From positions 1-64,000 of the forward strand of contig DASZKW010000043.1 in NCBI GenBank assembly GCA_035552775.1: a stretch of 64,000 bases of DNA. Reading direction: 5' to 3'. This document shows positions 1 to 62,438 of this stretch, one piece after another. Numbering within the stretch: the first letter of the stretch is position 1; each line of letters starts with the position of its first letter. The translations under genes were made by a program, and so were the position numbers. Under the pieces are notes generated by a model that made no database searches, had not been told where the DNA came from, and saw only the letters and a list, made by a program, of their open reading frames with translations. This DNA comes from Acidimicrobiales bacterium (GTDB taxonomy: Bacteria > Actinomycetota > Acidimicrobiia > Acidimicrobiales > Palsa-688).

Positions 1-713
1 ACCGGTTCGAGGCTGGGGCGTATCTGGTCGGCACCGAGGCCCTCCAGTTCTTCGAGCGGGTACGTTCCGGTGCCCACGAGCAGGCAGCGGGCTCCGGCCG
101 CCTGAGCGCACTCCAGGTCGCGAGGGGTGTCGCCGACGACCCAGGTGTCGCCGGCTGTGAGCTCCACGCCGTGGCGGCCGGCGACGCGGCGCAGGGCGAC
201 GGGCACCAGTACCCGGCGGTCGGCGTCGTCGCTTCCATAGGCGCCTACCTCCAGGTCGAGCCAGCGCTCCAGGCCGAACGCGGTCAACTTGACGACGGCG
301 TTGGGGGCGACGTTACCGGTGAGCACCGTCGACACCACCCGCCGGTCACAGTGGAGGCGCTCGAGCAGATCGACCACCCCGGGCAATACGTAGCCGTCGG
401 CGGCCATCGCCGCGGCCGCTGCCTCCAGCCCCTCCTCGAGGTGGCGGAGGATCTCGGGCAGAGCCTCGGGAGCGGCGTGCATCAGCTCCAGGTACTCGCT
501 CACGATCTGGGGATCGGTCTTGCCACCCATGCGGACACGGACTTCGGGAGCGCGCCCCAGCACCGCCTCCAGGGCACGGTCGAACACCGCAGCACCGTGG
601 CCGCCGGCGTGGAGCAGCGTCCCGTCCACGTCGAAGAGCACGAGGCGCCGGATCACCGGATCAAGGTACGGAGTTTCTTCGCCGTCACCAGCGGCGGGGT
701 AGACAATGGTCAT
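1..713 (-). CDS. HAD-superfamily hydrolase (C-terminus off left edge of window)
   Basis: Minus-strand translation begins [10 protein letters not shown]...[17 protein letters not shown] (DxDGT motif I) and later [24 protein letters not shown] (motif IV region). ATG at 713..711. The ORF is not in the track because it runs off the edge. Confidence 0.6.
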
Positions 714-5100: not shown

Positions 5101-6245
5101 GCCGCGGTCTCCCCGGGCTCGGTGCCCGCGGGTGCTCCGGTACCCTGCGGCGAGCCCGGAAGCGGAGGGGGCGTCAACGCGGCTGGGGCCAGAGCCACCA
5201 GGATGGCCGCCAGCGGAGCCGCCGCCAGCGCCGGCCACTGCGGCGGCGACACGCTCGGATGTATCCCCGCGCCGGTTGCCACCACTGCGACGACGGGTAC
5301 GAGCACGCTCGCCGCGGTGAGCCATTCGGGGCTGCCCCAACGGTCGGGGCGGTACCGGGTACGCGTCGTTCGCCGGCCCCGGGCGACGAGGGCACCGGCG
5401 AGCATCGCCACACCGAGCGGCAGGATCACCGGTCCCACCGGTCCGGGGATGCCCGTCTGGTCCACCAGGGCGGCCACCCCGAGGACGCTCAGTATCAGCC
5501 CGGCGACCGTGGCCACGTCGCCCACCCGCCCGGCCGGCCCGGGCCGGCGCACCCGGCGGCCGTAGCCACGGGCGTCCATTGACGCCGCCAGCTCCAGCGA
5601 GCGGTCGAGGGCTCCTTCGAGCACGGGGACGGCCATACCCCGTACCCCGGCTATGCCCCGCACGGGGCGGCCCCGCAGCCGGCGGGCGTCGCGGATGTTG
5701 CGCACCGTGATCATGGCCTCGGGGGTAAAAGCCAAACCCACGGTCACCGCAACCCCCGCCTCGTAGAGCAGCGACGGCAGGCAGCGCAGCAGCCGGTAGG
5801 GGCTGGCCAGCGAGTTGGCGGCGGCGAAGCAGGCCAGGATCACCGCCAGCTGGAGTCCCTGGTAGAGCGCCCCGAGGATGGCCTCCACCGTCACCGGGCC
5901 GCCGATGCTGACCCCCGCGGCCCACGTGGGCAGCGGGACACGGGGCAAGGCGAAAAGCTGATGACCGCCGACCTTGGCTCCGAAGACGACCTGGATCACC
6001 AGGCGCACCAAGACGATGGTGACCCCGAAGCGGACCGAGACCCCCAGCGTCGCCGCCCATGGGGCGTTGCCCCGCCGGGTGACCACCACCGACGCCACCA
6101 CCGCGAACACCAGCGCCAGCAGCAGCGGGCTGGTGGTGCGCCCGGCGACCACGGCCAGGCCCGCGGCCCACACCCACCACGCCAGGGGATGAAGCGTCCT
6201 CCTGTACGCCTGTACCCGGCCCCGCCCGCCAGAAGCGAGGCTCAC
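5097..6245 (-). CDS. ecfT: ECF transporter transmembrane T component (CbiQ/EcfT family)
   Basis: 382-aa polytopic membrane protein with CbiQ-like architecture. GTGA overlap with the upstream gene at 6242-6245 and with the ATPase at 5097-5100. Confidence 0.75.
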   Translation of the reverse strand: MSLASGGRGRVQAYRRTLHPLAWWVWAAGLAVVAGRTTSPLLLALVFAVVASVVVTRRGNAPWAATLGVSVRFGVTIVLVRLVIQVVFGAKVGGHQLFALPRVPLPTWAAGVSIGGPVTVEAILGALYQGLQLAVILACFAAANSLASPYRLLRCLPSLLYEAGVAVTVGLAFTPEAMITVRNIRDARRLRGRPVRGIAGVRGMAVPVLEGALDRSLELAASMDARGYGRRVRRPGPAGRVGDVATVAGLILSVLGVAALVDQTGIPGPVGPVILPLGVAMLAGALVARGRRTTRTRYRPDRWGSPEWLTAASVLVPVVAVVATGAGIHPSVSPPQWPALAAAPLAAILVALAPAALTPPPLPGSPQGTGAPAGTEPGETAA

Positions 6246-7288
6246 CCCACCTCGCCTCCCCGGCGCCGGTGGCGGCGCTGGTAGGCGACGACGCCCGCGG
6301 CCAAGGCGGCGAGGAGGGCTGCGGTGAGCAGCGCCGGCCAGGCGCTGCCGCCGGTCCGGCGCAGCGAGCCCGACGCGCCGGCCACGGCCCGGGGACCGCC
6401 AACGTTCGAGACCCGGTCCCCCGCCGGCGCCGAGGTGGTGGGGGCATCGAGTGTGGTCCGGGCACCCGTCGCCTGTTTCGGGGTGGGCGCTGCGACGCTG
6501 GACGCGACGGTTGCCGACACGGCCGGCGGGCGCGGCGCTTTCCCTGCCCGGTCACCGGTCGGTGGCGACTGAGCCGGCGCCGACGGCGAACTGCCGCCGC
6601 CCGCACCGGCTGCGACGGCGGCCGTCCCGGCCGGGTTCGACGCGCCGGACGGGGGTGACGAAGCGGGCGAGGAAGGTCCGGGGGGTGGCACAGTGGGCGA
6701 CGTCGCAGCGGGCACCGTCGTCGAGGCTGCGGTCGGAGACGGCGCCGTCGTACCGCAGGTGACGGCGGGGTCCGCCGGGCCGCGCGGCGCCGGGTCGCTC
6801 GGGTTACCGTGGCCGGGGTCTTGGAAACGCCAACCCTGCGTCGTGGCCGCCGACGCGGTGGCGAACGCCGGTCCGGTGTTGGAGTAGCTCCAGCCGCCGG
6901 CCGTGCCCTGCCAGTACGACCAGTAGTCGTACCCGCCGGCGGTGAGGGTCCCGCACCCCGAGGCGGGAGTGCCGTCGATGGCGCAGAGCAGCCCGCTCGG
7001 GTCGTAGCGGGGCGGGGGCCACCCCTCCTGGTTGGAGAGGTCGGCCAACGCCTGCGCGTTGTTGTCCCCGCTCGGGACCTCCACGCAAGCCTGGACGACG
7101 TTTCCCGGCGAGGTGGTGGGGCCGCCGAAGTCGACGACGAACGCCACGTGCGATCCCGTCGCCGCCGCCGCGCACCCCGCGCCGATCGGGCCGGCGAGGC
7201 TCGACGCCGGGAGCCAGGTGGCGGTGCCGACGACCACGCCGGCGGCCAGAGACATCCGCCCCCACCGCCGCGCCCACCGGTTCATCAC
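6242..7288 (-). CDS. secreted, membrane-anchored accessory protein (signal peptide, about 150-aa globular domain, Pro/Ser/Thr-rich linker, C-terminal TM anchor with RRHRRR stop-transfer)
   Basis: N-terminal [33 protein letters not shown]. Conserved domain with a YDYWSYWQG motif, a long PT-rich spacer, then a C-terminal hydrophobic helix plus basic tail. ATGA overlap with the upstream gene. Confidence 0.65.
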
Positions 7289-8748
7289 ACCCCGGGCGGG
7301 TCGGCGCCCATGGCTACCACGGGCCGGTTCAGTTGGGCACCGCCCTCGGAGCCCAAGAACGGGGCGTCTCCGAAGGTGAACACACCACCGTCGGACGCCA
7401 CCAGCCAGTAACCGCGCCCGTCGGCCGTCGGCGCCATCCCCACGATCGGCGCGTTGAGCTTGGCGCCGCCCTCCGACCCGTAGAAGCCGGCGTCGAAGCT
7501 GAACACCCCGCCGTCGGACGCCACCAGGCGGTAGCCCGAACCGGCGGTGGGGTGGGGGTTCTCGGGGAAACTCAGGCCGGCGAGGGCGGGCACCGCCTGC
7601 TCGGTGGCCAGCAGGTTGGCGGTCAGGGCGCCGTTTGCGCCGGCCTGGAACGCGAGGGCCCCCGTAGACGGGCTAGCGGAAATCTGGAGTCCGAGCAGGA
7701 ACGACAGGGCATCGGCGCCTCCCTTGACGAAGCGGGGACCGACGGGGGAGGTCCTGGCGGCGACTAGGGCTTGGATGACCAAGGCGGTGGAGTCCGAGTC
7801 GCTGGGCCCCCCGAAGTACGCCCAGCCTCCGTCGCCACCCTGGACGGCGGCGAGGAAGCCGACGGCGTCGTGGGCGGGAGCGGTCCGCTGGGCGGCGAGG
7901 CCCTCGACGGCAACGGCGGTGGAGTTGGTATCGGGTCCGGTATAGGTGGAGGGGTCGGCCGGCGGGCACGGTGTGGCGGTGTCGGCCCGGTATGCCTCCC
8001 ACCCGCCGCTCTGGCACTGCTGGCCCGTCAGCCACCGCAGCGCCGGGGCTATGACCGCCGTTCCCACGTCGCCGGCCCCGGCGAGGGCGGCTAGGGCCAG
8101 GCCCTGGCGGTACGCACCGTCGTAGGTCGGGTCGGCGCTGCCGAACAGGCCGGCGTCGGTTCCGCTGGTGCGCATGGTGGCGAGGAGCCGCGCCACCAGG
8201 TCGCTTCCGCCGAAACGGCGAGGGTCGACACCGGTGGCGTGAGCGTCGAGGATGAGCAGGGCGAGCCGCCCCGGGTCGTCGACCGGCGGGGTCTGCGAAC
8301 GGTCGACCACGGCGGCGTCGACGTGGGCCTGCAGGTAGGCGATTGCCGGCGCCACAGTTCCCGGGTTGGTTCCGGTGGCGGCGAGGGCCAGGACGGCCTG
8401 GGCGGTGTCGGAGTAGTCGGGTTGACCGGGCGAGGTGGCGGAGGGGATGAAACCGTGGGCGCCGAACTGGCTCGCCAGCCACGTCGAGGCGACAGCGGCG
8501 GCCGGCGACTGGGGGAGCCCGGCCGCGGTCCCAGGCGCACTGGCGGAGGCGCTCAGGCCGGCGAGCGCCGGGGTGGCCGCCAGCGCCGGGGTGGCCGCCA
8601 GCGCCGGGGTGGCCGCCAGCGCCGGGGTGGCCGCCAGCGCCGGGGTGGCGGCGACGGCCGCGGCCAGGGCCGCGGCGGCTACGGGGCGGAGTCGGAAGCA
8701 CAACCGACGGTCGCCGGGTCGGCGCCGGCGGGACGAGAGCGGGACCAT
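7285..8748 (-). CDS. secreted prenyltransferase/terpene-cyclase-like (alpha/alpha-toroid) repeat protein with C-terminal tandem [11 protein letters not shown] repeats
   Basis: ATG at 8748 with an AGGAGG Shine-Dalgarno 8 nt upstream. Signal peptide with an (ATPALA)x5 repeat. Q-x-x-GGW repeat motifs ([22 protein letters not shown]) typical of the prenyltransferase/squalene-cyclase fold. Two C-terminal 40-aa repeats. Confidence 0.65.
8563..8650. repeat. perfect 18-bp tandem repeat x5 (cagcgccggggtggccgc) encoding (ATPALA)n in the signal-peptide region
   Basis: Seen directly in the sequence. Confidence 0.85.
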
Positions 8749-9021
8749 GGTTCGTTTGCCTCCTGGTGAGCGGAGGAGACGAGGAACGCTCCTGCGACGC
8801 CCGGGAAGGGAACCGCACGAACCAACCTTGCTCCGAGGACTGGTTTCGTCGACCCGAAGCAGACGACCGGGCTCATGCTCCAATGGAGCCATCACCGTTG
8901 CGGCACAGCGCCGGGATCGCACCGGACTTCGCTGACATTCGGACCACCCCGCTGGTGGGCCAGGGCCAGCGAAATCTAATCCTGGCCCCCGGGGGTGTCA
9001 AGGTCCGGGGGCTACGGTCAT

Positions 9022-10074
9022 TCAGGCGCTGACGGTGGGCCTGTCGTTTATGGCCCCTTGACGCTCGGCGAGGGGACGCCCGTCGCGCCCGCAGCGCACC
9101 GCGAGGATCTCGGCGCCGATGCTCAGCGCCACCTCCGCGGCGCTGCGCCCGCCGAGGTCGAGGCCGATGGGCCGGTGGATACGCTCCAGGGCGGCGTCGG
9201 TCACCCCTGCGGCCCTCAGGCGTTCGATCCGGCGGGACTGGGTACGCCGGGAGCCCATGGCCCCGACGTACGCGGCGCCGGCAGCCAGGCCGGCGGCCAG
9301 GGCGGGAGCGTCGACATGGGGATCGTGGCTGAGGACCACCAGGGCGGTTGATGCCCCGCCCCATGCCAGCAGCCCGTCGACTTCGGTGAGAGCGTCGGTG
9401 GCGCGGGTCTCCCATCCCAGCAGGCTCGCCTGAGCGGCGATGGCGCCCACCAGCTCGCCGGCGCCGACGACCACGACGCGAGGCGAGGGCACCCAGATGT
9501 CGGCGAGCACCGCGCCGGTGGGATCGTCGAGACGGCGGGTCATGGTGTTGCCCGACCGAAGAGCCTCCACCGCGGCCGCTACCAGTCCGGCGCCGGGCGG
9601 TGTGGCCGGGTCCCCGAGACCGCCCTGCCAGGTCCCGTCGGGATGCACGGCGGTGCCGGCCGGTCCGGCACCAGGCCCGTCGATACGGGTCAACAGGGCG
9701 ACGGGGGCGCGCGCTGCGAGCGCCGCCCACAACTCCTCCGGTACCGCCTCGGCGGGCTGGAGGAGGAGGTCGGCTTGACCGCCGCAGCTCAGTCCCGCAT
9801 CGGCGACCCGCGAGCCGTGCACCTCGATGGCCAGGCGGAACAGGGTGCCCGGGCCGGCGAGGACGTCGGCGGCCGCCTCGGCCACCCGCCCGGCGCCGTA
9901 GCGGCCGAGGATGTCGCCGCGGCGCTCGCCGGCTTCGTTGACCGCCACCAGCTCGTCGCCGGACCAGGTGGAGAAACCTTGCAGCTCGACGACGCGCGCG
10001 AACACGGCCCTCGTGCCCTTTGCGCGCCAGGCCTCGAGCTGGGCGGCCGTCTGCTGAAGTCCTCGGTCGTCCAC
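9022..10074 (-). CDS. XdhC/CoxI-family accessory protein
   Basis: 350-aa ORF with XdhC-like N-terminal and Rossmann-like C-terminal regions (VVVVGAGELVGAIA...). Confidence 0.75.
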   Translation of the reverse strand: MDDRGLQQTAAQLEAWRAKGTRAVFARVVELQGFSTWSGDELVAVNEAGERRGDILGRYGAGRVAEAAADVLAGPGTLFRLAIEVHGSRVADAGLSCGGQADLLLQPAEAVPEELWAALAARAPVALLTRIDGPGAGPAGTAVHPDGTWQGGLGDPATPPGAGLVAAAVEALRSGNTMTRRLDDPTGAVLADIWVPSPRVVVVGAGELVGAIAAQASLLGWETRATDALTEVDGLLAWGGASTALVVLSHDPHVDAPALAAGLAAGAAYVGAMGSRRTQSRRIERLRAAGVTDAALERIHRPIGLDLGGRSAAEVALSIGAEILAVRCGRDGRPLAERQGAINDRPTVSA

Positions 10075-10086
10075 GCCGAACCCCGC

Positions 10087-10857
10087 TCAGGAGGGCCGCG
10101 CCGGCCCGGCGACGACGGCGAAGCGGGGGCTGGAACCGAGGATCCGCTCGGCGACCGGCGCGTCGAGCGACGCCGCCCACTCGACGTCGCGCAGGCGGTG
10201 CAACCGGGGCTGGGACCAACCGGCATCGGCGACCAGGGTGGCCACGGCGGAGGGCGACGTGCCTCCCCCGAGGGGCATGGCGGCGCGCACAGACGTCGGG
10301 TATTCGGCGTGATGGCCACCGCGGGGGGCGCCCCTGGCCGCCCTGCCTGCCGCCACCCGCCCGAGGGTCGACTTGGTCCGGTGACGTAGGCGCTCGAGAG
10401 AGTCGTGGCCTCCCCACATTCCCTCGAACAGGACCAGGCGGCCGCCACCCGAGCTTCGGTGCCAGGCCCGCAGAGCCTCGAGCGGGTCGGGCAGGGTCCA
10501 CAGCAGGTGGCGTTCGATGACCGCGTCGAAGGGGCCGGGGGGTGGCCGCTCGGCCGACCCCTCCACCACCTCGACCTCGAGGCCCTCGCCGGCGGCCTTG
10601 GACTCGAGGCGCGCCAGCATTCCCGGCGACAGATCGAGCGCCGTCACCTGGTGTCCGAGCCGCGCCGCCAGCAGGCTCAAAAAGCCGGTGCCCGCTCCGC
10701 AGTCGAGGACGCGGGCGGGGGCGGGCGGCAGCATTTCGGTCAGAGCGGCCGCCCACGCCGCCCGCTCCGCGGGGGCGGTGGGGTGGTGGTTGGGCACGTT
10801 GTCGTAGATGGCGCTGTCGTCGTCCCAGAAGCGGCGGACCTCGTCGGCGATGGTCAT
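10087..10857 (-). CDS. class I SAM-dependent methyltransferase
   Basis: Motif I VLDCGAGTGFLS. 256 aa. Confidence 0.75.
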   Translation of the reverse strand: MTIADEVRRFWDDDSAIYDNVPNHHPTAPAERAAWAAALTEMLPPAPARVLDCGAGTGFLSLLAARLGHQVTALDLSPGMLARLESKAAGEGLEVEVVEGSAERPPPGPFDAVIERHLLWTLPDPLEALRAWHRSSGGGRLVLFEGMWGGHDSLERLRHRTKSTLGRVAAGRAARGAPRGGHHAEYPTSVRAAMPLGGGTSPSAVATLVADAGWSQPRLHRLRDVEWAASLDAPVAERILGSSPRFAVVAGPARPS

Positions 10858-10930
10858 GCTCCCCAGCCTACGAAGGCTGGAGCGCTCAGTTCTGGCGCGG
10901 CGCTACGCTCCCGCGGTGGCGTCGTACAGC

Positions 10931-11317
10931 ATGAGCCAGGCTGCCCGCCTGCTCGGGGTGAGCGCGGACACCGTCAGGCGCTGGGCCGACGGCGGGCGCC
11001 TGCCGGTGACGCGCCGGCCCGCGGGCCGGCGGGAGGTCGACGGGGAGGAACTGGCCCGGTTGGCCTCGTCGATGGCCGACGACACTGACCTGGGGGCGAC
11101 GGGCAGCCACTCGGCGCGCAACCGCCTGGTGGGCATCGTCACCAAGGTGACCAAGGACGGGGTGATGGCCCAGGTGGAGCTCCAGGCAGGCCCGTTCCGC
11201 ATCGTGTCCCTGCTCAGCCGGGAGGCGGCCGACGAGCTGGCCCTGGCCCCGGGGACCATGGCGGTGGCGTCGGTGAAGTCGACCTCCGTCACCATCGAGC
11301 TGCCGGCACCGACCTGA
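10931..11317 (+). CDS. MerR/excisionase-type HTH plus TOBE (molybdate-binding) domain regulator, ModE-like
   Basis: MSQAARLLGVSADTVRRWADGGRL HTH followed by a TOBE/Mop domain (NRLVGIVTKVTKDG...VELQAGPFRIVSLLSREA). Convergent with modABC. Confidence 0.7.
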   Translation: MSQAARLLGVSADTVRRWADGGRLPVTRRPAGRREVDGEELARLASSMADDTDLGATGSHSARNRLVGIVTKVTKDGVMAQVELQAGPFRIVSLLSREAADELALAPGTMAVASVKSTSVTIELPAPT

Positions 11318-11392
11318 ACGCGCCAGGCCGCTGCCAGCGGCGGCGGCACCCGCTGATGGGCAAGTCGCGGCCGGCGGCTCAGGCGTGGACGA

Positions 11393-11448
11393 GATCGCCG
11401 ACTGGGTACCTTCGTTCCTCGGGGAGTCGACGTAGCAACGCTCGCCTC
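11393..11448. repeat. partial copy (one arm plus adjacent core, about 43/44 nt identity) of the palindromic element at 48444-48540
   Basis: ggtaccttcgttcctcggggagtcgacgtagcaacgctcgcct equals the reverse complement of 48444-48486 with one mismatch. Confidence 0.8.
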
Positions 11449-11491
11449 GGGTAACTGCCCCGGCGGGAGCTTGGCAATACCATCTCGGCCG

Positions 11492-13354
11492 TCAAGGGCC
11501 TGCGCTGATGGGGCGGCCCAGGGAGCGCGGCGACGTCAACTCCTCTTGGCGCCACGCGCCGACCGGGGGTAGGTCGACACGGGCGAAGGACCCGGCCGCC
11601 AGGTCCTCCACCGCCCGGTGGTGGCTGACCAGCACCACGCCGGGGGCGAGCTCGACGGTCGCCTCGCCGCGCCGGCCGAGGTCCACGACGTCGAGGACCC
11701 GCACCGGCCATCGCCCCGCCGCCGAGGGGGCGACCTCCTCGGGGTCGACCGACCACAACACCCGTGCGCCCGGCCGCGCCGCCGCGCCGGGACCCAGATC
11801 GCAGGGCACGACGATCGGCCATGCGCCCGACCCCGCCGCGACCAGCGACGCCCCCGCGACGGTGCCTTCGTGGACGTTGGCCAACCCGAGCAGGTGGGCC
11901 ACTGTGACCGACGCGGGGCGGTCGAACAGCTCCCGGCGCGTGCCGGCCTGGAGGACCCGCCCTCCAGCGAGCACGACTATCTCGTCGGCCAAGGCCGCAG
12001 CCTCCTCGGGGTCGTGGGTCACCACCACGCTGGGCATGCCGGTGTCGACCTGGAGACGGCGCAGCTCGGCGCGCAGGGCGCGGCGAAGGGTGGTGTCCAA
12101 GGCGGCGAGCGGCTCGTCGAGAAGCAGAACCCGGGCCGGAGAGGCCAGGGCCCGGGCGAGGGCGACGCGCTGGCCCTGTCCCCCCGACAGCTCGGCGGGG
12201 TAGCGGGCCTCCAAGCCGTTCAGCCCCAGGCGGTCCAGCCACCACGACGCCCGGCCCGGGGATGCCCCCACGGCGAAGGTGACCTGGTCCCAAACGTCGA
12301 GGTGGGGCACCAGGGCGCCCCCCTGGGGGACGTAGCCCATTCCCCGCTGCTCGGCGCTGAGGGCTCCCAGCTCGTCGTCGCCGACCCTCACCCATCCTTC
12401 GGTCGTCGCCCTCACGCCGGCCAGCAGCTGGAGGGTGAGGCTTTTCCCCGCCCCCGACGGACCCACCACGGCGAGACGGGGGGACCCGGCCCGGTGGGCG
12501 ACGCGCAGGTCGAAGGTGCCGAGGCGCGCCCGGACCGAGAAGTCGAGGGGGAGGCTGGCGCTGGGACGGGGGGCCTCGGGCGGCGGGGGGGGCGGGGGCG
12601 GGCGGCGGCGGCGGCGCAGGTGCCCGACGCCAACGGCCACCAAGGCGGTGGCGATGGCGAGGTCGACGGGCACCTGGGTGGCCGACAGGCCCGTGCTGTC
12701 GAAGCCCACGTATGCGTACACGGGCAGGGAGTAGGGGTGGTAGGCGAGCAGCACGGTGGCGCCGAACTCGCCGAACGCCCGCAGCCAGGTCAGCACCAGG
12801 CCGGCGCGGATCCCAGGCAGCGCTTCGGCGACATCCACACGCCAGAAACGGGACCACCGCCGGTGACCGAGGGTGGCCGCCACCGCGTCGAGGGAAGGGT
12901 CGACGCCGGAAAACCCGGCCCGGGCGGCGACGATCAGGAACGGACCAGCCACGAACGTCTGGGCCAGGACGATGCCCCAGATCGACTCGGTCAGGCGTCC
13001 ACCGCTGTGGCGGCCGAGGAACGTGTACGGCCCGACCACCCGGATGAGCAGCAGGCCGCTCACCAGCGGGGGCAGGGCGAGGGGAAGCTGGACGAGCGCC
13101 CCGACCGTCCCCCACGCCCGGCGGCCCCAGCCCGGCGGCCGGCGGCGGGCGAGGACCCATGCGAGGGGTATGCCGAGGAGCGCTGTCACGGCGGTGGCCA
13201 CGCTGCTGGCCAGCACGGAGGTGCCGAGCGCCGCCCATACGCTGCTGCCACCGAGGCCTTGCCAATGCCCGGGCCCGAGGCGGGTCAGGGTCAGGGCGAC
13301 TGGAACGATGAGGTAGACGGCCAGCACGCCGCCGAGCACGGCGGCGACCGGCAC
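11492..13354 (-). CDS. molybdate ABC transporter permease-ATPase fusion (ModB-ModC), with C-terminal TOBE
   Basis: N-terminal ModB permease (EAA-like loop, 6 TM). Poly-Pro linker [13 protein letters not shown] encoded by a poly-G/C tract near 12590-12625. Then Walker A GPSGAGKS, LSGGQGQRVALARAL, Walker B LLLDEP, and a TOBE tail. GTG start at 13354 with GAGGAGG Shine-Dalgarno. Confidence 0.75.
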   Translation of the reverse strand: MPVAAVLGGVLAVYLIVPVALTLTRLGPGHWQGLGGSSVWAALGTSVLASSVATAVTALLGIPLAWVLARRRPPGWGRRAWGTVGALVQLPLALPPLVSGLLLIRVVGPYTFLGRHSGGRLTESIWGIVLAQTFVAGPFLIVAARAGFSGVDPSLDAVAATLGHRRWSRFWRVDVAEALPGIRAGLVLTWLRAFGEFGATVLLAYHPYSLPVYAYVGFDSTGLSATQVPVDLAIATALVAVGVGHLRRRRRPPPPPPPPEAPRPSASLPLDFSVRARLGTFDLRVAHRAGSPRLAVVGPSGAGKSLTLQLLAGVRATTEGWVRVGDDELGALSAEQRGMGYVPQGGALVPHLDVWDQVTFAVGASPGRASWWLDRLGLNGLEARYPAELSGGQGQRVALARALASPARVLLLDEPLAALDTTLRRALRAELRRLQVDTGMPSVVVTHDPEEAAALADEIVVLAGGRVLQAGTRRELFDRPASVTVAHLLGLANVHEGTVAGASLVAAGSGAWPIVVPCDLGPGAAARPGARVLWSVDPEEVAPSAAGRWPVRVLDVVDLGRRGEATVELAPGVVLVSHHRAVEDLAAGSFARVDLPPVGAWRQEELTSPRSLGRPISAGP

Positions 13355-13371
13355 CCTCCTCGCCAGGCTGG

Positions 13372-14346
13372 TCAGGGGACGGCGCGAAGGTCGGCCCGCA
13401 GGGCGGGGGGTACGGCCGACACGGGCCCGTTGAGCACCGGCGGGGCCGTCAGGGTGAGGCCGGCGCCGGCTAGGGCCCGCCGGCCGGCGCCGGAGTACAA
13501 GAAGGCGACGAAGGCGACGGCCGCGCCCTGGTGGGGGGCGCGTGCGACGACCGTGACGGTGTAGGAGGCGGACAGATGCACAGGGTCCAAGGACACAGTC
13601 GGGATCCCCGCCGCCTCGGCCTCGTTGGCGTAGAAGAAGCCGGCGTCGAGCTGTCCCGATTGCAGCTCGCCGACCAGGCTCTCCTCGGGGAAGACGTTGG
13701 CGGTGCTGGTGATGACGCCCGCCAGGCTGGGAGCGCGGGCCGCCGTCTCGGCCTGTCGGATCGCCTGGAGCGTCAGCTTTCCCTTGGGGTCGAGCTCGGG
13801 ATCGGTCCGACCGAGCAGGAAGCCGGGTTGGGTGACCACGTCGTACCAGGGCATGGACCTGGGGCCGCCGGGCTCGATCTGGGCGGCGAAGCGGCCGTGG
13901 GGGTTGTAGCCGAGCACCAGGGGGGCCGACGCCAGCGAGGCGTACCACGAGACCCAGCCGCCGTTGGCGCTGCCCTCGAGGGCGGCGTCGGCGGTGGGGC
14001 TGGCGGAGACGAACACGTCGGCCTGGCGCACCTTGCCCTTGATCTCGTTGACCAGGGCGTCGGATCCCCCGGCGAACCCGGTGAAGCTGGCACCGTCGGC
14101 GGCGTCGAAAGCCGGCCCGATGGTGGTGGCCATGAGGTGCTCCAGGGAGGCGGCGTAGAGGACGTCCACCGGCCCAGCGGCGCGCCGCGAAGCGGAGGTC
14201 GCCGGCGACGGCCCGCTCGCCGGCGCTGTCGAACCGCAGGCGGTGAGCGCGGCGGTGAGCGCCGCGGTGAGAGCCGCGGTGACGACGGTGCCAGCCACCG
14301 TCTCCACTGAGGTCGCAGACACCGCAAGCAACGGTACCGCGCTCAC
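13372..14346 (-). CDS. modA: molybdate/tungstate-type ABC substrate-binding lipoprotein (ModA-like)
   Basis: Lipobox LTAALTAALTAC. Periplasmic-binding-protein fold motifs. Start assigned to GTG at about 14346 (uncertain). Confidence 0.65.
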   Translation of the reverse strand: MSAVPLLAVSATSVETVAGTVVTAALTAALTAALTACGSTAPASGPSPATSASRRAAGPVDVLYAASLEHLMATTIGPAFDAADGASFTGFAGGSDALVNEIKGKVRQADVFVSASPTADAALEGSANGGWVSWYASLASAPLVLGYNPHGRFAAQIEPGGPRSMPWYDVVTQPGFLLGRTDPELDPKGKLTLQAIRQAETAARAPSLAGVITSTANVFPEESLVGELQSGQLDAGFFYANEAEAAGIPTVSLDPVHLSASYTVTVVARAPHQGAAVAFVAFLYSGAGRRALAGAGLTLTAPPVLNGPVSAVPPALRADLRAVP

Positions 14347-36326: not shown

Positions 36327-36971
36327 ATGGGTGAAGCGCACATATCAACCGAACACCAGGCGGCGAGCCAAGCGACACGGTTTCCGGCACCGGATGTCCA
36401 CGCGTGCCGGTCAGGCGATCATCAAGTCCAGGCGGCTCAAGGGCCGCAAGCGCCTCTCGGCCTGATCTGGCGTGTCCGCAGGCGGGGTACCTTCGGTGAA
36501 CTCCACCGGGCCCGGACGCGGCGCGGGGCCCCGGGAGGGACCCGGCAGGGCGTGGCGGCCGGCACCAGAGCGCAGCGTCACCGTCGTGGGCCTATCACGG
36601 TATCTTGGGTGGGCGACGACTGGTCGGTACCGCCCCGCGTCGGTTTTGCTGTGGGCCGCAACGTTGGCTCCGCGGTGCTCCGAAATCGCCTCAAGCGCCA
36701 ACTGAGGGCGATCTTGGGGTCCGAAGCCGCCCGCCTTTCGGCCGGCGCCTACCTGGTTCGGGTGGCACCAGACGCCATTCACCTATCCTTCCATGATCTA
36801 CAGATCACTTTGGTGCAAACACTCGATACCATGGGCCTTCTGAAAGAGGCTCCCGCCAGTGCTGCATCGACGGCGAGTACCGCCTCTGTGTCGAGTACCG
36901 CCTCTGTGTCGAGTACCGCCTCGGTGTCGAGCAGTGACGTAGGGCACAGCGAAGCGAGAGCCGGTGGTTGA
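36327..36971 (+). CDS. rnpA: ribonuclease P protein component RnpA (long form; 5' part overlaps rpmH out of frame; C-terminal Ser/Thr repeat tail)
   Basis: RnpA core ([26 protein letters not shown]). The only canonical in-frame start is the ATG at 36327, 4 nt before the rpmH GTG. No ATG/GTG/TTG lies between the rpmH stop and the core. Confidence 0.55.
36331..36465 (+). CDS. rpmH: 50S ribosomal protein L34
   Basis: GTG-initiated [52 protein letters not shown] Shine-Dalgarno upstream. Confidence 0.9.
36875..36928. repeat. 18-bp tandem repeat x3 (gagtaccgcctctgtgtc) in the rnpA 3' tail
   Basis: Seen directly. Encodes STASVS repeats. Confidence 0.8.
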
Positions 36972-37305
36972 CGAGCCCTTGAATGGCGCTTCGGTCCTAT
37001 CGGCCCCCGCTGTACGCGTACTGGATCGGCCGGCGCCAGGCGGTGCCATCCGGGGGCGACGCCCCGCCGCCGATGAGGTCTCGTCGGCCCGGGGATGGTC
37101 GCGGCTGCTCGTAGGTCTCATCCAGATCTACCAACTGGCTCGGAGTGGTCGAGTATCGCCGTGCCGCTTCACTCCGACGTGCTCCCAGTACGCCGTAGAA
37201 GCCCTTTCCCGCCATGGCGTCACGCGGGGCCTGCGTTTGACCGCCGGCCGCCTCGTGCGCTGCCGCCCCGGGGGTCCCTTCGGAGCGGACCCCGTCCCGG
37301 AATGA
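36964..37305 (+). CDS. yidD: membrane protein insertion efficiency factor YidD
   Basis: LIQIYQLARSGRVSPCRFTPTCSQYAVEAL...RLVRCRPGGPFGADPVP. Confidence 0.7.
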   Translation: MVDEPLNGASVLSAPAVRVLDRPAPGGAIRGRRPAADEVSSARGWSRLLVGLIQIYQLARSGRVSPCRFTPTCSQYAVEALSRHGVTRGLRLTAGRLVRCRPGGPFGADPVPE

Positions 37306-37312
37306 GGAACTG

Positions 37313-38854
37313 ATGTACTCCTTCCTTAACCCGATCGCCAAGCCGATCGCCGCCGTTTTGGCCGCGTTCTACAGCCTGATCCCGAACTTCGGCGTCGACA
37401 TCTTGGTGCTGGCGCTGATCTGGATGGTGATCATCTCGCCGCTGACGCTCAAGTCGACGCGCTCGATGCTCGCCATGCAGGCCCTCCAGCCGGAGATCAA
37501 GCGCCTACAGGAAAAGCACCGCAACGACAGGCAGGCCTTCGCCCAGGCCCAGATGGACCTGTTCCGCGAGCGGGGAGTGAGCCCGTGGGGATCGTGCCTT
37601 CCTACCATCCTGCCCCTGCCCGTGTTCTTCGCCCTCTTCCAGGTGATCGACGGTCTCAGCCGGATGGTGAAGAACAGCGCAGGTCACCTGGTGTCAAGCC
37701 CGCGCTACCTCGACACTCACTCGGCGATATACCACGCCATCACCACGGCCAAGGGGCACATCAACGCCTTCGGCCTCGACCTTTCCAAGAACCCTCTGTC
37801 GCCGCACTCGTCGTTCGCCGGCGCCCTGCCGTACTACCTGCTTCTGCTGATCATGATCGGCACGCAGTACTACCAGACGTCGATGATGATGAACCGCAAC
37901 CCGGCGGCTGCGCAGAACCCGCAGATGAAGATGATGAAGTACCTGCCGATCGTCTTCGGCGTCATCCTCATCCGGTTCCCCGCCGGCGTCATCCTCTACT
38001 ACGCCATGTCGAACGTGTGCCGTATCGCCCAGCAGTGGGCCATGTACCGATACGACCCCAAGGTGAAGAGCCTGGTGGTGCAAGAGGTCAATGAGATAGA
38101 GGCCAAGACCCGCGAGATCGACAAGGCGGACAAGGCCAACAAGGACCCGTCCGGCAGGTCCCTTCCCTCCAAGGCAGCGCCGGCAAAGCCGCCGGCGGCC
38201 GGGCGTCCCCGGCTGCGTGACCTGCTCTCGCCGCCTGCGGCGCCCGACCAGGCCAGACCTTCCAACGCGACGGCGGGGCGCGACAGGGGCTCGAGGCCCA
38301 AGGGCGCCCCGCCGGCCGGTAGCAACAGGTCCGGCGGTCAGGGCACCATGGCCCCTGGTGCCAAGTCGGCCAAGGGCAATCCGGGAGCCACTCGAAAGGC
38401 GCCCGGAGACTCGAGCAACCGGACCGCCGGCAATGGCAACGGGTCAAACCGGGTCAAGCCGAATGGGAAGGGCTCGGACATATCCAAGAAAAGCTCAGGT
38501 GGCGCACCGGCCGGCGCCAGAGGCAACCCGGGGGCCGGGAGCGGCTCCGGAAGCGCCCGTGGCGCCGCCAAGGCAGGCCCCGGCAAGCCGGGCGCGCCCG
38601 GCACCGGCACGGGGTCTTCTGGCACGGGGTCTTCTGGCACGGGGTCTTCGGGCACCGTGTCTCCGAGCCCTGCGGCTCCTGGCGCGGCGTCGCCAGCCAC
38701 GACCCCCCCGAACACCACCTCCAACGGGTCCGGCTCCAACGGCTCGGGTGGAGGGCAACGAGCATCCACAGGCGCACCTCGTACCGGCGCCGGGGCCAAG
38801 CGCAACATTCCGCCCCCTCGCCGCGGCCGCTCGAAGAAACGTAGAGGCCGCTGA
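37313..38854 (+). CDS. yidC: membrane protein insertase YidC with about 250-aa Gly/Ser/Pro-rich basic C-terminal tail
   Basis: Five-TM 60-kDa-IMP core. The tail ends RRGRSKKRRGR. Contains 15-bp tandem repeats. Confidence 0.85.
   Translation: MYSFLNPIAKPIAAVLAAFYSLIPNFGVDILVLALIWMVIISPLTLKSTRSMLAMQALQPEIKRLQEKHRNDRQAFAQAQMDLFRERGVSPWGSCLPTILPLPVFFALFQVIDGLSRMVKNSAGHLVSSPRYLDTHSAIYHAITTAKGHINAFGLDLSKNPLSPHSSFAGALPYYLLLLIMIGTQYYQTSMMMNRNPAAAQNPQMKMMKYLPIVFGVILIRFPAGVILYYAMSNVCRIAQQWAMYRYDPKVKSLVVQEVNEIEAKTREIDKADKANKDPSGRSLPSKAAPAKPPAAGRPRLRDLLSPPAAPDQARPSNATAGRDRGSRPKGAPPAGSNRSGGQGTMAPGAKSAKGNPGATRKAPGDSSNRTAGNGNGSNRVKPNGKGSDISKKSSGGAPAGARGNPGAGSGSGSARGAAKAGPGKPGAPGTGTGSSGTGSSGTGSSGTVSPSPAAPGAASPATTPPNTTSNGSGSNGSGGGQRASTGAPRTGAGAKRNIPPPRRGRSKKRRGR
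38606..38655. repeat. 15-bp tandem repeat x3 (ggcacggggtcttct) in the yidC tail
   Basis: Seen directly. Encodes GTGSS repeats. Confidence 0.8.
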
Positions 38855-38857
38855 GCG

Positions 38858-39919
38858 ATGGAATGGGTCGAGACCACGGGTCGAACCATCGAAGAAGCCA
38901 AAGAAGCAGCTCTTGACGAACTGGGCGTCGATCAGCACGACGCCGAGTTCGAGGTGGTCACGGAAGCCCGGTTGGGTCTTTTCGGTCGCCTTCGTTCGGA
39001 AGCCCGGGTGCGGGCGCGCGTGCGCCCGACCGCCCCCCGCGCCAAAGATGACCGCCGTGACCGGCGGCGCCGCCGTAAGTCTGAACCCGAGAGTGATACC
39101 GTGGTCTCCGACGCTGGTGGCGCCGACGCGAGGACCGGGCTCGGTACCGGCGAAAAGGCACCCGCGGGCCCGAGCCGGCGGCCCAGGACCAGCGCTCCAC
39201 CGCGGCCCACAGGGGATGGTACGACGGGGCCCTCGGTTACGCCTTCGGCGGACGCCCTACCCTCGGCGGGGGACGCTGACAGACCCAAGTCCCCCGGGGT
39301 CAACGCCCGCTCGACGGATACCCAATCGGGCAATGGGCGGCGCGCCGGCAACGGCGATGGAGCGCGATCCCCGAGAAATGAACGCCCGGCGCGTCCTGGG
39401 CGGACCGCAGATTCATCCAAGCAATCGAGACCCGAGGAGGCAGGACCGGTGGAGGTGGCGCTTGAGGAGCAGGGCCAGGTGGCGCAGGACTTCCTGCGAG
39501 GGCTCATGGACGAGTTGGGTCTGGGCGCCGCGATCCGGGTCGCCCGACCGGACGAGGACACCCTGGAGCTGGGCTTGGAGGGTGACGACCTGGGCGTCCT
39601 CATTGGACAGAAGGGGGCCACGCTGTTCGCCCTCCAGGACCTGACCCGCACCGTGGTCCAACGGCGCACGGGCGCCTCCAACGGCCGTCTGCTGGTCGAC
39701 GTAGGCGGTTATCGCCAAAAGCGCCACCAGGCGTTGGCCCGCTTCGCCGAGCAGGTCGCGGAGCAGGTTCGGTCCTCCGGTTCGCGCAGGGCGATGGAGC
39801 CGATGAATGCCTCCGACCGCAAGGTCGTCCACGACACCATCAACCGCATCGATGGCGTCCAGACCACATCCGAGGGCGAGGATCCCCGGCGCTATGTGGT
39901 CGTTCTGCCCCTCGACTAA
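38858..39919 (+). CDS. Jag/KhpB RNA-binding protein (Jag-N, KH, R3H)
   Basis: N-terminal MEWVETTGRTIEEAKEAALDELG. C-terminal KH/R3H region (VHDTINRIDGVQTTSEGEDPRRYVVV). Confidence 0.8.
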   Translation: MEWVETTGRTIEEAKEAALDELGVDQHDAEFEVVTEARLGLFGRLRSEARVRARVRPTAPRAKDDRRDRRRRRKSEPESDTVVSDAGGADARTGLGTGEKAPAGPSRRPRTSAPPRPTGDGTTGPSVTPSADALPSAGDADRPKSPGVNARSTDTQSGNGRRAGNGDGARSPRNERPARPGRTADSSKQSRPEEAGPVEVALEEQGQVAQDFLRGLMDELGLGAAIRVARPDEDTLELGLEGDDLGVLIGQKGATLFALQDLTRTVVQRRTGASNGRLLVDVGGYRQKRHQALARFAEQVAEQVRSSGSRRAMEPMNASDRKVVHDTINRIDGVQTTSEGEDPRRYVVVLPLD

Positions 39920-39967
39920 CGCAGGCCCGGCGATCCGGCCGGTCGGCGACCCTCCCGTTCCGCCCCG

Positions 39968-40594
39968 TTGACCGAGGGCGAGCGCCGTCAGCTGGTCGAT
40001 GTGCTCGAGCAGGCGCGGGAGTGGGGCTTCGTGGGCCCGGGAGACCTCGATGCCCACGTCGAGCACAGCCTGGCCTTCTTGCCGTTGTGCGGTCCGGCCC
40101 AGGCTGGGACTGATCTGGCTGTTGACCTCGGAAGTGGGGGAGGGTTACCCGGCCTTGTCCTGGCCCTCGTCCAAGTCGACCGCCCCTGGTTGCTGTTGGA
40201 CGCCAACCGGCGCCGCACCGACTTCCTCATCACCGCCGTCCGCCAACTCGGAATCGGTGACCGCACAAAGGTGATATGCCAGCGTGCCGAAGTCGCAGGC
40301 CGGGGTCCCCTCCGAAACAGCGCCACGCTGGTGGTGGCCCGAGGTTTCGCCGCTCCTGGTCCCACCGCCGAGTGCGCCGCTCCCCTACTGGGGGTCGATG
40401 GCATGCTCGTCGTCGCCGAACCGCCCGGTGGGGCCCCCACTCGTTGGCCAGCAACCCAACTCGCCGATCTAGGGTTGGACTTCGACAGCATGACCACCGA
40501 GCCTGTCGCCCTCAGGCGCTTCCGCCAGGTGCGGCCCTGCCCGGATCGTTATCCACGCCGGGTGGGCATCCCGGGCAAGCGTCCCCTGTTCTGA
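39968..40594 (+). CDS. rsmG: 16S rRNA m7G527 methyltransferase RsmG
   Basis: LDLGSGGGLPGLVLAL motif. TTG start. Confidence 0.8.
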   Translation: MTEGERRQLVDVLEQAREWGFVGPGDLDAHVEHSLAFLPLCGPAQAGTDLAVDLGSGGGLPGLVLALVQVDRPWLLLDANRRRTDFLITAVRQLGIGDRTKVICQRAEVAGRGPLRNSATLVVARGFAAPGPTAECAAPLLGVDGMLVVAEPPGGAPTRWPATQLADLGLDFDSMTTEPVALRRFRQVRPCPDRYPRRVGIPGKRPLF

Positions 40595-40626
40595 TACTGG
40601 CCCCGTGGTTCCCCCTGGAAGGGTTG

Positions 40627-40642
40627 CGTTCCACGTGAAACC
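40627..40642. promoter_or_regulatory. parS: parS centromere-like site (cGTTCCACGTGAAACc, 1 mismatch to the TGTTTCACGTGAAACA consensus)
   Basis: Palindrome in the rsmG-parA intergenic region, where parS sites usually lie. Confidence 0.6.
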
Positions 40643-40734
40643 TTGGCTCTCGGCTGGATCTCTAGACTTGCCTCTCTGGGTCCCTAAAGCGAAATACTTG
40701 CTTCTGCTGGTGGCGCCGACGCACCATAGGGGGG

Positions 40735-42060
40735 ATGACAGAACCTGAGGAGTTGCGGGAGCGGGCCGCCTCCATATTTCAGCAGCTGCGAAATCAGCCC
40801 CATGTCGCTGACGACTACGAGCCCAGCACCGGAGAGGACGTCGCGTCCAGCACCGGAGAGGACGTCGCGTCCAGCGCTCTACCCGGCACCGCAGAAGACG
40901 GGGCCGAAGACACGGGCACGGACTCGGACCCCGCCGATCACGTCGACCTCACCCGCCCTTCTGCTCCCGAGAACGGCGATCCCGGCCTAAGCAACCCCGT
41001 TGTTACCGACTCCGCCGTCGCCCAGCCGTCGTCGGTCCTCCTAGGAATGACGACGGTGCCGGACCTTCCTGAAGCCCGGGTCACGAGCGATCCCGACGCG
41101 GGCGCAAAGGGTGGCACCGTACCGGCCGAGGTGACTCCCACCGTCCCACGCCGATCGGTGCAGGCTTCAGCTCTGGGCGAGGGTGGTGTCGGTTTTGCCC
41201 TCAGCGGGGCTGAGCTCTCTGCCCTCTCCCCGGAGCGTGAGCGCGAGTCGGGAACACGCCGGCATCCCGGGAGCGACCGACCCCTGCCCCGGGTCTTGGC
41301 CATCGCCAACCAGAAGGGTGGCGTGGGCAAGACCACCACGGCTGTGAACCTCGGAGCGACCCTGGCCGAGCTCGGCTACCGGGTCCTGGTCGTCGACCTT
41401 GATCCCCAAGGCAACGCCACCACCGGCCTCGGGGTGAACCCCCGCAACCTCGACGCCTCGGTGTACGACGTCATCCTCCACGAGACCCCGATCGAGGACT
41501 GCATCGAGCCGTCGAGCCTGCGGAACCTGTTCATCGTTCCCGCCACCATCGACCTGGCCGGTGCCGAGATCGAACTCGTTCCCGCTTTCAGCCGGGAACT
41601 ACGCCTCCGCAGGGCGATTGACAGTGTCAAGGACGACTTCGAGTTCATCCTCATCGACTGTCCCCCGTCCCTCGGTCTGCTCACCGTGAACGGCTTGGCC
41701 GCGGCCAGCGAGGTTGTCGTGCCCATCCAGTGCGAGTATTACGCCCTCGAAGGCCTGGGCCAGCTCCTACGCAACGTGAACCTGGTCAAGTCCAACCTCA
41801 ACCCCAACCTCGAGGTGACCACCATCATCCTCACCATGTTCGATGCCCGTACCAGGCTGGCCGAGCAGGTAGTGGACGAGGTGCGCTCTCATTTCGGTGA
41901 CCGAGTCTGTCGTCATATAGTCCCTCGCACGGTGCGATTGAGCGAGGCCCCCTCGTTCGGACAACCCATCATCGTCTTCGACTCCTCCTCACGGGGAGCG
42001 ATCGCTTATCGGGAGTTGGCCAAGGAGGTAAGTGGTGGCGCGCCGCAGCGGATTGGGTAA
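40735..42060 (+). CDS. parA: chromosome partitioning ATPase ParA with about 190-aa acidic N-terminal extension
   Basis: Deviant Walker A KGGVGKTT. Extension contains a 24-bp tandem duplication (STGEDVAS x2). Confidence 0.8.
   Translation: MTEPEELRERAASIFQQLRNQPHVADDYEPSTGEDVASSTGEDVASSALPGTAEDGAEDTGTDSDPADHVDLTRPSAPENGDPGLSNPVVTDSAVAQPSSVLLGMTTVPDLPEARVTSDPDAGAKGGTVPAEVTPTVPRRSVQASALGEGGVGFALSGAELSALSPERERESGTRRHPGSDRPLPRVLAIANQKGGVGKTTTAVNLGATLAELGYRVLVVDLDPQGNATTGLGVNPRNLDASVYDVILHETPIEDCIEPSSLRNLFIVPATIDLAGAEIELVPAFSRELRLRRAIDSVKDDFEFILIDCPPSLGLLTVNGLAAASEVVVPIQCEYYALEGLGQLLRNVNLVKSNLNPNLEVTTIILTMFDARTRLAEQVVDEVRSHFGDRVCRHIVPRTVRLSEAPSFGQPIIVFDSSSRGAIAYRELAKEVSGGAPQRIG
40824..40871. repeat. 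24-bp perfect tandem duplication in the parA N-terminal extension
   Basis: cagcaccggagaggacgtcgcgtc x2. Confidence 0.85.
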
Positions 42061-42943
42061 GGGCCTAGGGGCCCTTATCCCCAACGAAGTGGTGGGCGAT
42101 CGGTCGTCGGCCCTGCTCGACATACCGGTGGCGTCGATCAGGCCCAACCCCCACCAACCCCGGGCACACTTCGACGAGGAAACTCTGGCCTCCCTGGCCG
42201 CCTCGATTCGCGAGCTCGGCGTACTCCAGCCCATCCTCGTCCGGCAGGTCGCAGACAACGACTTCGAGTTGGTCGCCGGCGAACGTAGGTGGCGCGCGGC
42301 ACGACGCGCCGGGTTGCCCACCATCCCCGCCATCGTGCGCAACGTCACCGATATCGCCAGCGTGGAGCAGGCGCTGGTGGAAAACCTGCACCGCCAAGAC
42401 CTGAATCCCCTGGAAGAGGCCGCCGCCTACCAGCAGCTCATCGAGGATTTCGGTCTCACCCACGAGCAGCTGTCGGGTCGTGTCGGCAGAAGCCGGGTCA
42501 CCATCACCAACACCCTGCGGCTGTTCCAGCTACCACCCGCCGTCCAGAAGCTGGTGGCCGACGGGCAGCTGTCCGCCGGTCACGCCCGCGCTCTACTCGG
42601 TACCCCCGACCGCTCCTACCAGGAGGCTCTCGCCCGGCGGGCCGTCGGCGAGCAGCTCTCGGTGCGCTCGGTGGAGGACTCGGTACGTGATCGCAACGAG
42701 CTGGGGGGGGCGACGGGGGGTGTCGCCAAGCGCACGGATGCGCCGCGGCCTCCGGGGATCCTGGAGCTCGAGGAGATCCTGTCGGCCCGCCTCGACACCC
42801 GGGTCAGGGTCGACCTGCGCGCCCGGCGGGGCAAGGTGGTAATCGAATTTGCCACGCTGGAGGACCTGGAAAGGATCTACCGGGCGATGACCGAACCGCT
42901 TGACGGCCATCGGGTCAGTCCGCAAGCCTCGACCCACACCTGA
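42032..42943 (+). CDS. parB: chromosome partitioning protein ParB
   Basis: GLGKGLGALI N-terminus. ParB box LVENLHRQDLNPLEEA. HTH. Confidence 0.85.
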   Translation: MVARRSGLGKGLGALIPNEVVGDRSSALLDIPVASIRPNPHQPRAHFDEETLASLAASIRELGVLQPILVRQVADNDFELVAGERRWRAARRAGLPTIPAIVRNVTDIASVEQALVENLHRQDLNPLEEAAAYQQLIEDFGLTHEQLSGRVGRSRVTITNTLRLFQLPPAVQKLVADGQLSAGHARALLGTPDRSYQEALARRAVGEQLSVRSVEDSVRDRNELGGATGGVAKRTDAPRPPGILELEEILSARLDTRVRVDLRARRGKVVIEFATLEDLERIYRAMTEPLDGHRVSPQASTHT

Positions 42944-48389: not shown

Positions 48390-48443
48390 GACGCCGGCAA
48401 GGCTACCGGCCGAAGTTGCCGCCCTGGCATCAACACGATGTAC

Positions 48444-48540
48444 CAAGGCGAGCGTTGCTACGTCGACTCCCCGAGGAACGAAGGTCCAGGGTAACCGTCC
48501 GAGTCGGCGACAGCATCGTCGACGTAGCAACGCTCGCCTT
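48444..48540. repeat. perfect 23-bp inverted repeat (aaggcgagcgttgctacgtcgac / gtcgacgtagcaacgctcgcctt) with 51-nt spacer; member of a repeated element family
   Basis: Seen directly. Lies between degV and the kinase in a locally low-GC stretch. Partial second copy at 11393-11448. Confidence 0.85.
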
Positions 48541-48700
48541 TGTAAGTCCCGGCAAAATCGTGGCCTGTGGTAACGAATCGGAGCCCCGACTACGCCCGTC
48601 CGGCATCTTGTGTGCAGTTCCCGGGGATATAGCCAATGTTTCTGCAGTTAAGGTCAGCGCCGGCCGGCGACGGGGGAGGTTTTCGGCCCAGCGGGCTCTG

Positions 48701-62335: not shown

Positions 62336-62348
62336 AGGGCGACATGAC

Positions 62349-62438
62349 GGGTTCGGCGGCACGGGCGGGTTCGGCGGCACGGGCGGGTTCGGCGGCACGG
62401 GCGGCTGCGGCGGCACGGGCGGGTGCCGCGGCACGGAC
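62349..62438. repeat. 18-bp tandem repeat x5 (gggttcggcggcacgggc, last two copies diverged)
   Basis: Seen directly in the Rv0049-like/ponA1 intergenic region. Confidence 0.85.

Follow-up and report, generated by a model that had tools for sequence, protein, structure and literature searches.

A probable TA-inserting MITE with filled and empty sites in a genome of the Acidimicrobiia

The palindrome located between degV and a Ser/Thr kinase gene in the 64-kb stretch of Acidimicrobiales DNA analysed here (the window) is very probably a 100-nt non-coding MITE, which inserts at TA and duplicates this dinucleotide. Two full copies and one partial copy have been identified in about 80 kb surveyed of this one genome: a full copy in the degV-kinase spacer (site 1), a partial one between a regulator gene and a fused ModB-ModC gene (site 2), and a second full copy between rplI and dnaB (site 3). 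Bacterial MITEs have been described in terms of their size, terminal repeats, TA termini, lower G+C and long stem-loop transcripts (PMC2229807). The element is likewise small and non-coding, with terminal inverted repeats, a target duplication, presence or absence at orthologous positions, a lower G+C and a predicted stem-loop transcript. The family is new, and the kind of bacterial MITE that it represents is already well known. Three possibilities, REP-like, MITE-like and structured RNA, had been proposed in the initial annotation of this DNA; the empty sites and the TA duplication uphold the MITE, and the other two options found no support.

The third copy was reached by following the JGI contig past the window through the Ino1 protein. 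It lies at L015 2655-2758 (= L016 9636-9739), about 4 kb past the window end (~68.3 kb in window coordinates), and its existence just outside the window supports the idea of a dispersed family that had been put forward from the two window copies. An empty-site test was possible at this position with contigs L017 and L018 of two relatives, which include the spacer upstream of dnaB and whose DnaB proteins are 97% and 95% identical, respectively. The focal rplI-dnaB spacer reads ...CCCGGAGT-TA-[100 nt]-TA-GCGTCCCACC..., that of the closer relative ...CTCGGAGT-TA-GCGTCCCACC... and that of the other ...CCCAGGT-TA-CGGTCACACC... Aligned as filled and empty sites, L016 (focal, filled) has ...ACCCGGAGT-TA-[CAAAGGCGAGCG...CGCTCGCCTTGG, 100 nt]-TA-GCGTCCCACCCAGCTGGTAAACATCG..., L017 (empty) has ...TCCTCGGAGT-TA-GCGTCCCACCTACCTGGTAGATATCG... 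and L018 (empty) has ...CACCCAGGT-TA-CGGTCACACCCCGCTGGTAGACATCG... Once the 100 nt and one TA are subtracted, the focal sequence is colinear with L017, being identical at 18/18 positions across the junction. At site 3, therefore, the element was inserted precisely and its 2-bp target, TA, was duplicated, and the junction sequences exclude a target duplication >2 bp. A search for target-site duplications had been advised from the outset, and it proved decisive, with the TA duplicated at site 3 and single in both L017 and L018. The duplication is direct at site 3 only, and for sites 1 and 2, whose relatives are too divergent for junctions to be compared, we infer it.

Site 1 spans 48443-48542 (100 nt, no strand assigned), and its boundaries come from its equal length and termini with respect to site 3, where the empty sites of the relatives fix the edges. 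Its layout is TA-CCAAGGCGAGCGTTGCTACGTCGAC-[50 nt]-GTCGACGTAGCAACGCTCGCCTTTG-TA, the TAs at 48441-48442 (left end) and 48543-48544 (right end) being the two copies of the target in a presumed duplication. The left terminal inverted repeat (48443-48467, + strand) and the right one (48518-48542, + strand) are 25 nt long and enclose an interior, or loop, of 50 nt (48468-48517, no strand). They differ by one mismatch, at the second base from the tip, and site 3 shows the same asymmetry. Thus, the element is bounded by 25-nt terminal inverted repeats (CMAAGGCGAGCGKTGCTACKTCGAC, 1 mismatch) placed at its exact ends, where they meet the insertion junction. If the TAs are included, the inverted repeat covers 48441-48544, with arms of 27 nt (48441-48467 and 48518-48544) and 1 mismatch, and a perfect 23-bp core is formed by 48445-48467 and 48518-48540. 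The initial annotation had described a perfect 23-bp inverted repeat around a 51-nt core, in a locally low-GC spacer. This description was right overall, its coordinates being off by one or two bases: the 23 bp are indeed perfect and the G+C is low (0.61 in the element and 0.63 in the spacer vs 0.70 in the window), and the loop measures 50 nt.

Within the window there are three occurrences of the 22-nt arm vs 0.00 expected from 100 dinucleotide shuffles, in none of which (0/100) was the arm present, and the match between sites 1 and 2 is by far the strongest long-range repeat within the 64 kb. TA accounts for only 1.2% of the window positions, yet it is found on either side of each full copy and next to the intact end of site 2. 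No plausible coding capacity was found in the element, in which three of the six reading frames contain stops; a small ORF (MYQGERCYVDSPRNEGPG, + strand of site 1) was considered and rejected, as its start codon is lacking at site 2 and no homologue was found. With 100 nt and no transposase gene inside, the element falls within the size range of 50-500 bp given for MITEs (PMC10969869).

Site 1 is placed between the degV stop (48701) and the start of the kinase gene, both genes being on the - strand. The focal spacer has 311 nt vs 62 nt, 169 nt and one greater length in three relatives (DegV 83%, 84% and 77% identical), and none of the three shows similarity to the element. In the same way, the modE-modBC spacer that contains site 2 has 174 nt vs 55 nt in relatives (regulator 82% identical), again with no similarity to the element. 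Given these element-free orthologous spacers, both window sites are extra sequence specific to the lineage. As a separate observation, the degV-kinase spacer of one relative (L008 10900-11010, GCA_963757175.1) holds ~3 tandem copies of a 33-nt unit, GCGGCTGACACTGAGCGCCGCTTGCGGTGCGAG, and therefore repeats seem to be acquired readily by this spacer, the one in which the focal genome bears the MITE.

On the side of the kinase, the element ends 7 nt upstream of TTGATGCCAGGGCG, a promoter-like stretch whose equivalent in L007 is TTGACGCCAGAGCG, and this promoter-like region is kept in two of the three relatives compared. The conserved GTG start of the kinase is at 48389, where GTGCCCGGACCTGACGCC is common to the relatives. 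Regarding the gene itself, the residues MPGPDAPAPLT that follow this GTG are conserved among relatives, and the JGI gene call puts the start at an ATG at 48299 (- strand), inside the glycine-rich loop of the kinase domain. A -10-like box (TAGCCT/TAGCGT) is located 10 nt upstream of the GTG in the window and in relatives L005 and L007. No Shine-Dalgarno is present before the GTG at 48389, which suggests that the kinase mRNA may be leaderless or nearly so.

Site 2 (11408-11451, - strand) retains one terminal repeat and 18 nt of the interior, and is found between a MerR-HTH/TOBE regulator gene (stop 11317, + strand) and the fused ModB-ModC gene (stop 11492, - strand). These genes are convergent, as the initial annotation had stated in placing the second site downstream of convergent modE-like/modBC genes. 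It had also reported a 43-nt segment on the opposite strand with a single mismatch, and this holds: read as its reverse complement, 48443-48485 matches 11408-11450 of the + strand over 43 nt (42/43, 98%, with 40/40 contiguous positions exact). The interval that it had given, 11393-11448, has to be corrected to 11408-11450. The tip of the repeat is a variant, CCCGAGG in place of CCAAGG, and a TA (11452-11453) abuts the repeat at its outer end. A covariance-model alignment at this site covers 11376-11452 with 17.8 bits and proposes a degenerate second arm. Thus, 11376-11407 (- strand) is a possible decayed remainder of the copy, with a shortened loop and a degenerate second arm, although this stretch is not statistically supported, homology past the 43 nt giving p about 0.02-0.05 in local alignment and about 0.10 in boundary-anchored alignment. 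Site 2 appears to be a truncated or decayed copy.

When the two full copies are compared, both are exactly 104 nt long including the TAs and carry identical asymmetric tips (TACCAAGG...CCTTTGTA), and the arms of site 3 also form a perfect 23 bp. Their arms differ at four bases, which belong to two base pairs, each replaced in a compensatory way (T-A by G-C, G-C by T-A), with no one-sided change, and their loops, conserved in length at 50 nt, are identical at only 24/50 positions (48%). Conserved arms with a divergent loop constitute the type II MITE pattern (PMC10969869). Three copies in about 80 kb would mean many genome-wide, although this is only an extrapolation.

Both window sites are unchanged in JGI contig Ga0376674_0000671 (63 kb), an independent assembly of the same organism that is 99.87% identical over 20.8 kb, and therefore they are not an assembly artefact. 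The window is also matched at 100% identity by contigs from run SRR11842680, and two of these short-read contigs, L010 and L004, stop at 11406 and 48519, within 2 nt of element boundaries. The former end is just before the shared 43-mer of site 2, and the latter is at the arm-loop junction of site 1; contig ends at element boundaries are as expected for a repeated sequence. The break at 48519 is not explained by the known repeats, taking into account that the arm is shorter than a 31-mer, and it hints at further copies sharing the arm, the TA and an AGTC flank, or at heterogeneity of the loop.

The window genes, according to Pfam and the gene calls of L003, are housekeeping only, and include pgi, fhaA/fhaB, rodA, pbpA, pknB, crgA and an oligopeptide ABC system, together with yidC-jag-gidB-parA-parB, trxB, murJ and ino1. 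No transposase, and no autonomous insertion sequence with matching CMAAGGCGAGCG-type ends, was found by Pfam among about 40-50 window genes or in the gene calls of the extended contig. Pfam scans of the window genes revealed no recombinase, and no Y1/RAYT gene was seen in about 80 kb. An exact scan for a 21-mer of the arm gave only two chance hits in genome and metagenome collections, both apparently within coding sequence, and none in a viral collection; these scans detect exact matches only, and therefore variant arms such as those of site 3 would escape them. The spacer had no blastn match in plasmids, a covariance model of the two full copies detected none beyond those already known, either in the window or in about 110 kb of DNA from relatives, and the translated element gave only low-complexity noise against 1.8 billion protein representatives. 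In the window, Rfam 15 at gathering thresholds identified only a tRNA-Leu and no family over the element. At E up to 10 it returned noise, the best match over the element being isrG, with 16.9 bits vs a gathering score of 100. Neither a terminator-like T run nor a promoter or an IHF site was found at the element. Integron attC, dif/Xer and parS sites were also considered, and discarded because, judged by eye, their consensus sequences did not fit.

The covariance model picked up, through structure alone (25.9 bits), a second and unrelated palindrome at L016 6264-6331 (~64.9 kb equivalent), in the spacer that separates panB from a class A PBP gene. Around a 20-nt loop, the arms CCGGAATCTGGTGTTACATC and GATGTAACACCAGATCCCGG are complementary at 19/20 positions; the G+C of this palindrome is low (0.59), and it may represent another repeat family or a terminator.

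Duplication of TA is the signature of IS630/Tc1-mariner-type transposition, and some IS5-group elements also give duplications of 2-4 bp; the TA duplication is the single character from which the IS630/Tc1-mariner assignment would be drawn. According to the mechanism proposed, a DDE transposase of this type, encoded elsewhere in the genome, would mobilise the element in trans, binding both terminal repeats, cutting the element out and pasting it into a TA. On one side of the TA, the flanking sequences of the three sites resemble one another (GCCGGGACT, ACCCGGAGT and GGGGCAGT). Each of them has GGG(A/C)(C/G/A)(G)T in front of the TA, and such targets may be preferred. Predicted folds of the full copies reach -58 to -63 kcal/mol, with z between -6.9 and -9.4 on either strand, and no stable fold is predicted for site 2 (z +0.55 and +1.26). 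Upon transcription of the flanking genes, the full copies would form an RNA hairpin of 23-26 bp (about -60 kcal/mol), which could alter the read-through of the degV-kinase and rplI-dnaB transcripts or their processing by RNase III.

It has to be noted that arm changes that are all compensatory exceed what simple independent decay of two sites bound by the transposase predicts, and hint at an added constraint on pairing, which may reflect selection of the hairpin or co-evolution with a variant of the transposase. Taking into account these compensatory pairs, the same orientation of the copies downstream of genes and the GGGAsT-TA flank, the element could be more than a passive MITE: its hairpin could be selected, for instance as a module for RNase III or for termination that transposition disseminates, or its movement could depend on the hairpin, unlike the cut-and-paste of IS630. 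We consider either variant unlikely.

A conserved structured RNA, namely a cis-regulatory hairpin, a small RNA or a terminator selected for its fold and recurring across transcripts, would explain why both full copies are such stable hairpins on either strand (z -6.9 to -9.4) and why both arm differences between them are compensatory and none is one-sided. It would also suit the orientation of the three copies, which is the same with respect to the upstream gene (degV, modBC and rplI), although three of three has a 1-in-4 chance. However, relatives with flanking proteins 77-97% identical do not have the element in their orthologous spacers, its loops are only 48% identical, and site 2 has neither a second arm nor a stable fold. 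Moreover, no terminator-like T run or promoter was found, Rfam gave no match beyond noise even at E up to 10, and a precise, TA-flanked insertion is the signature of transposition and not of an RNA gene, all of which makes this explanation very unlikely. The palindromic nature of the element, its intergenic position downstream of genes and its co-varying arms, which would suit recognition as single-stranded DNA hairpins, also recall a REP-type palindrome related to IS200/IS605 ends and moved by a RAYT (Y1) transposase via single-stranded hairpins; the GTAG contained in the arm and the possible one-sided similarity of the targets (GGGAsT beside TA at three sites) point the same way. REPs are imperfect palindromes of 20-40 nt that are not known to have 25-nt terminal inverted repeats or a target-site duplication, whereas here a 100-nt element has exactly terminal 25-nt repeats and a 2-bp TA duplication, and no Y1/RAYT gene was seen in about 80 kb, so that such an origin is highly improbable.

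Site-specific recombination has been contemplated in two forms, a switch upstream of the kinase and the flipping of a 37-kb segment by the 43-bp inverted repeats at 11.4 and 48.4 kb. Sites 1 and 2 have opposite orientations in the window, the interior of site 2 is inverted vs those of sites 1 and 3 relative to the similar target flank, a short-read contig stops exactly at the arm-loop boundary, and inversion has been reported for Correia elements (PMC10969869). However, no recombinase was found among the window genes scanned, the 50-nt interior has no promoter-like sites and was judged too short for recombinase-mediated inversion, and the third copy and its empty sites would be left unexplained; we regard inversion as extremely unlikely. 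Its 37-kb form was rejected on the grounds that the adjacency of degV and the kinase is conserved in relatives, and is ancestral. Lastly, a chance similarity or an artefact of assembly, to which only the small number of copies lends itself, has practically no probability in view of the arm matches in 0/100 shuffles, the 40/40 identity of site 2 to site 1, the presence of the same sequence in two assemblies and a third copy with equal length and tips.

As a MITE, the element adds to the Acidimicrobiia, an uncultured high-G+C actinobacterial lineage, a family documented by a TA duplication and by the comparison of filled with empty sites; among the papers searched, none dealt with MITEs in Acidimicrobiia. 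Elements of this kind break short-read assemblies, as occurs at both window copies, and mark very recent divergence of strains. They can also change the expression of neighbouring genes, and copies are located here 7 nt upstream of the promoter-like region of the kinase and before dnaB.

Some other features of the region deserve mention. Directly downstream of site 3 and upstream of dnaB, L016 9760-9870 contains a cluster of DnaA-box-like motifs (GTGGACA / TTGTCCAC), also conserved in the relatives' contigs L017 and L018. An extra 15 nt in the focal genome (AGGTGCCGTGGACAC) add one further box to it. The cluster yidC-jag-gidB-parA-parB (window 37241-42943) lies ~29 kb from dnaA-dnaN-recF-dciA-gyrB-gyrA (L016 13330-21266), on the same strand, with murJ, degV, the kinase, trxAB, ino1, rpsF-ssb-rplI and dnaB between them. 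In most Actinobacteria both clusters are adjacent and divergent around oriC, and the layout observed here therefore suggests a rearranged origin region. The G+C, measured in 2-kb windows, is about 0.75 in 1-14000 of the window and then steps down to 0.65-0.71 in 14001-48000. Short tandem repeats are found at 8543-8663, 36858-36929, 38606-38665 and 62348-62437, with periods of 18, 18, 15 and 18 nt, respectively; most of them are within ORFs and would encode repeated peptides, such as ATPALA in a secreted protein (7285-8922).

Among known systems, REP/BIME sequences with their RAYT resemble the element as dispersed intergenic palindromes, often just downstream of genes and with co-varying stems, and differ from it in being much shorter and in not being known to have such terminal repeats or target duplications. 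A closer parallel is the RUP of pneumococcus, which has 107 bp, is non-coding, inserts at TA and is mobilised by IS630-Spn1, being the bacterial MITE for which mobilisation in trans through an IS630-family transposase has the best support (PMC2229807). The element is similar to it in size, TA insertion and lack of coding capacity. However, the terminal repeats of RUP are short (9 contiguous bp in the table of that review) and match an insertion sequence in the same genome (PMC2229807), whereas those of the element have 25 nt and no partner insertion sequence was found in about 80 kb.

The non-coding Correia elements (CREE/NEMIS) of Neisseria measure about 107 or 155 bp; they terminate in TA, carry terminal inverted repeats of about 24-26 bp and show a duplication of the target (PMC2229807, PMC10969869). 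Located between genes, they give transcripts that fold into long stem-loops, which RNase III is able to cleave (PMC2229807, PMC10969869). Their hosts are Betaproteobacteria and that of the element belongs to the Acidimicrobiia; they exceed 100 copies vs the three documented here in about 80 kb. Unlike Correia, the element is G+C-rich in absolute terms (0.61) and neither an IHF site nor promoter-like hexamers were detected in it. We know of no sequence shared between the two, and the comparison, made on architecture alone, defines an analogue and not a family assignment. On these terms, with its 100 nt, 25-nt repeats, TA duplication and 23-26-bp predicted hairpin, the element has in the Correia elements its closest architectural analogue.
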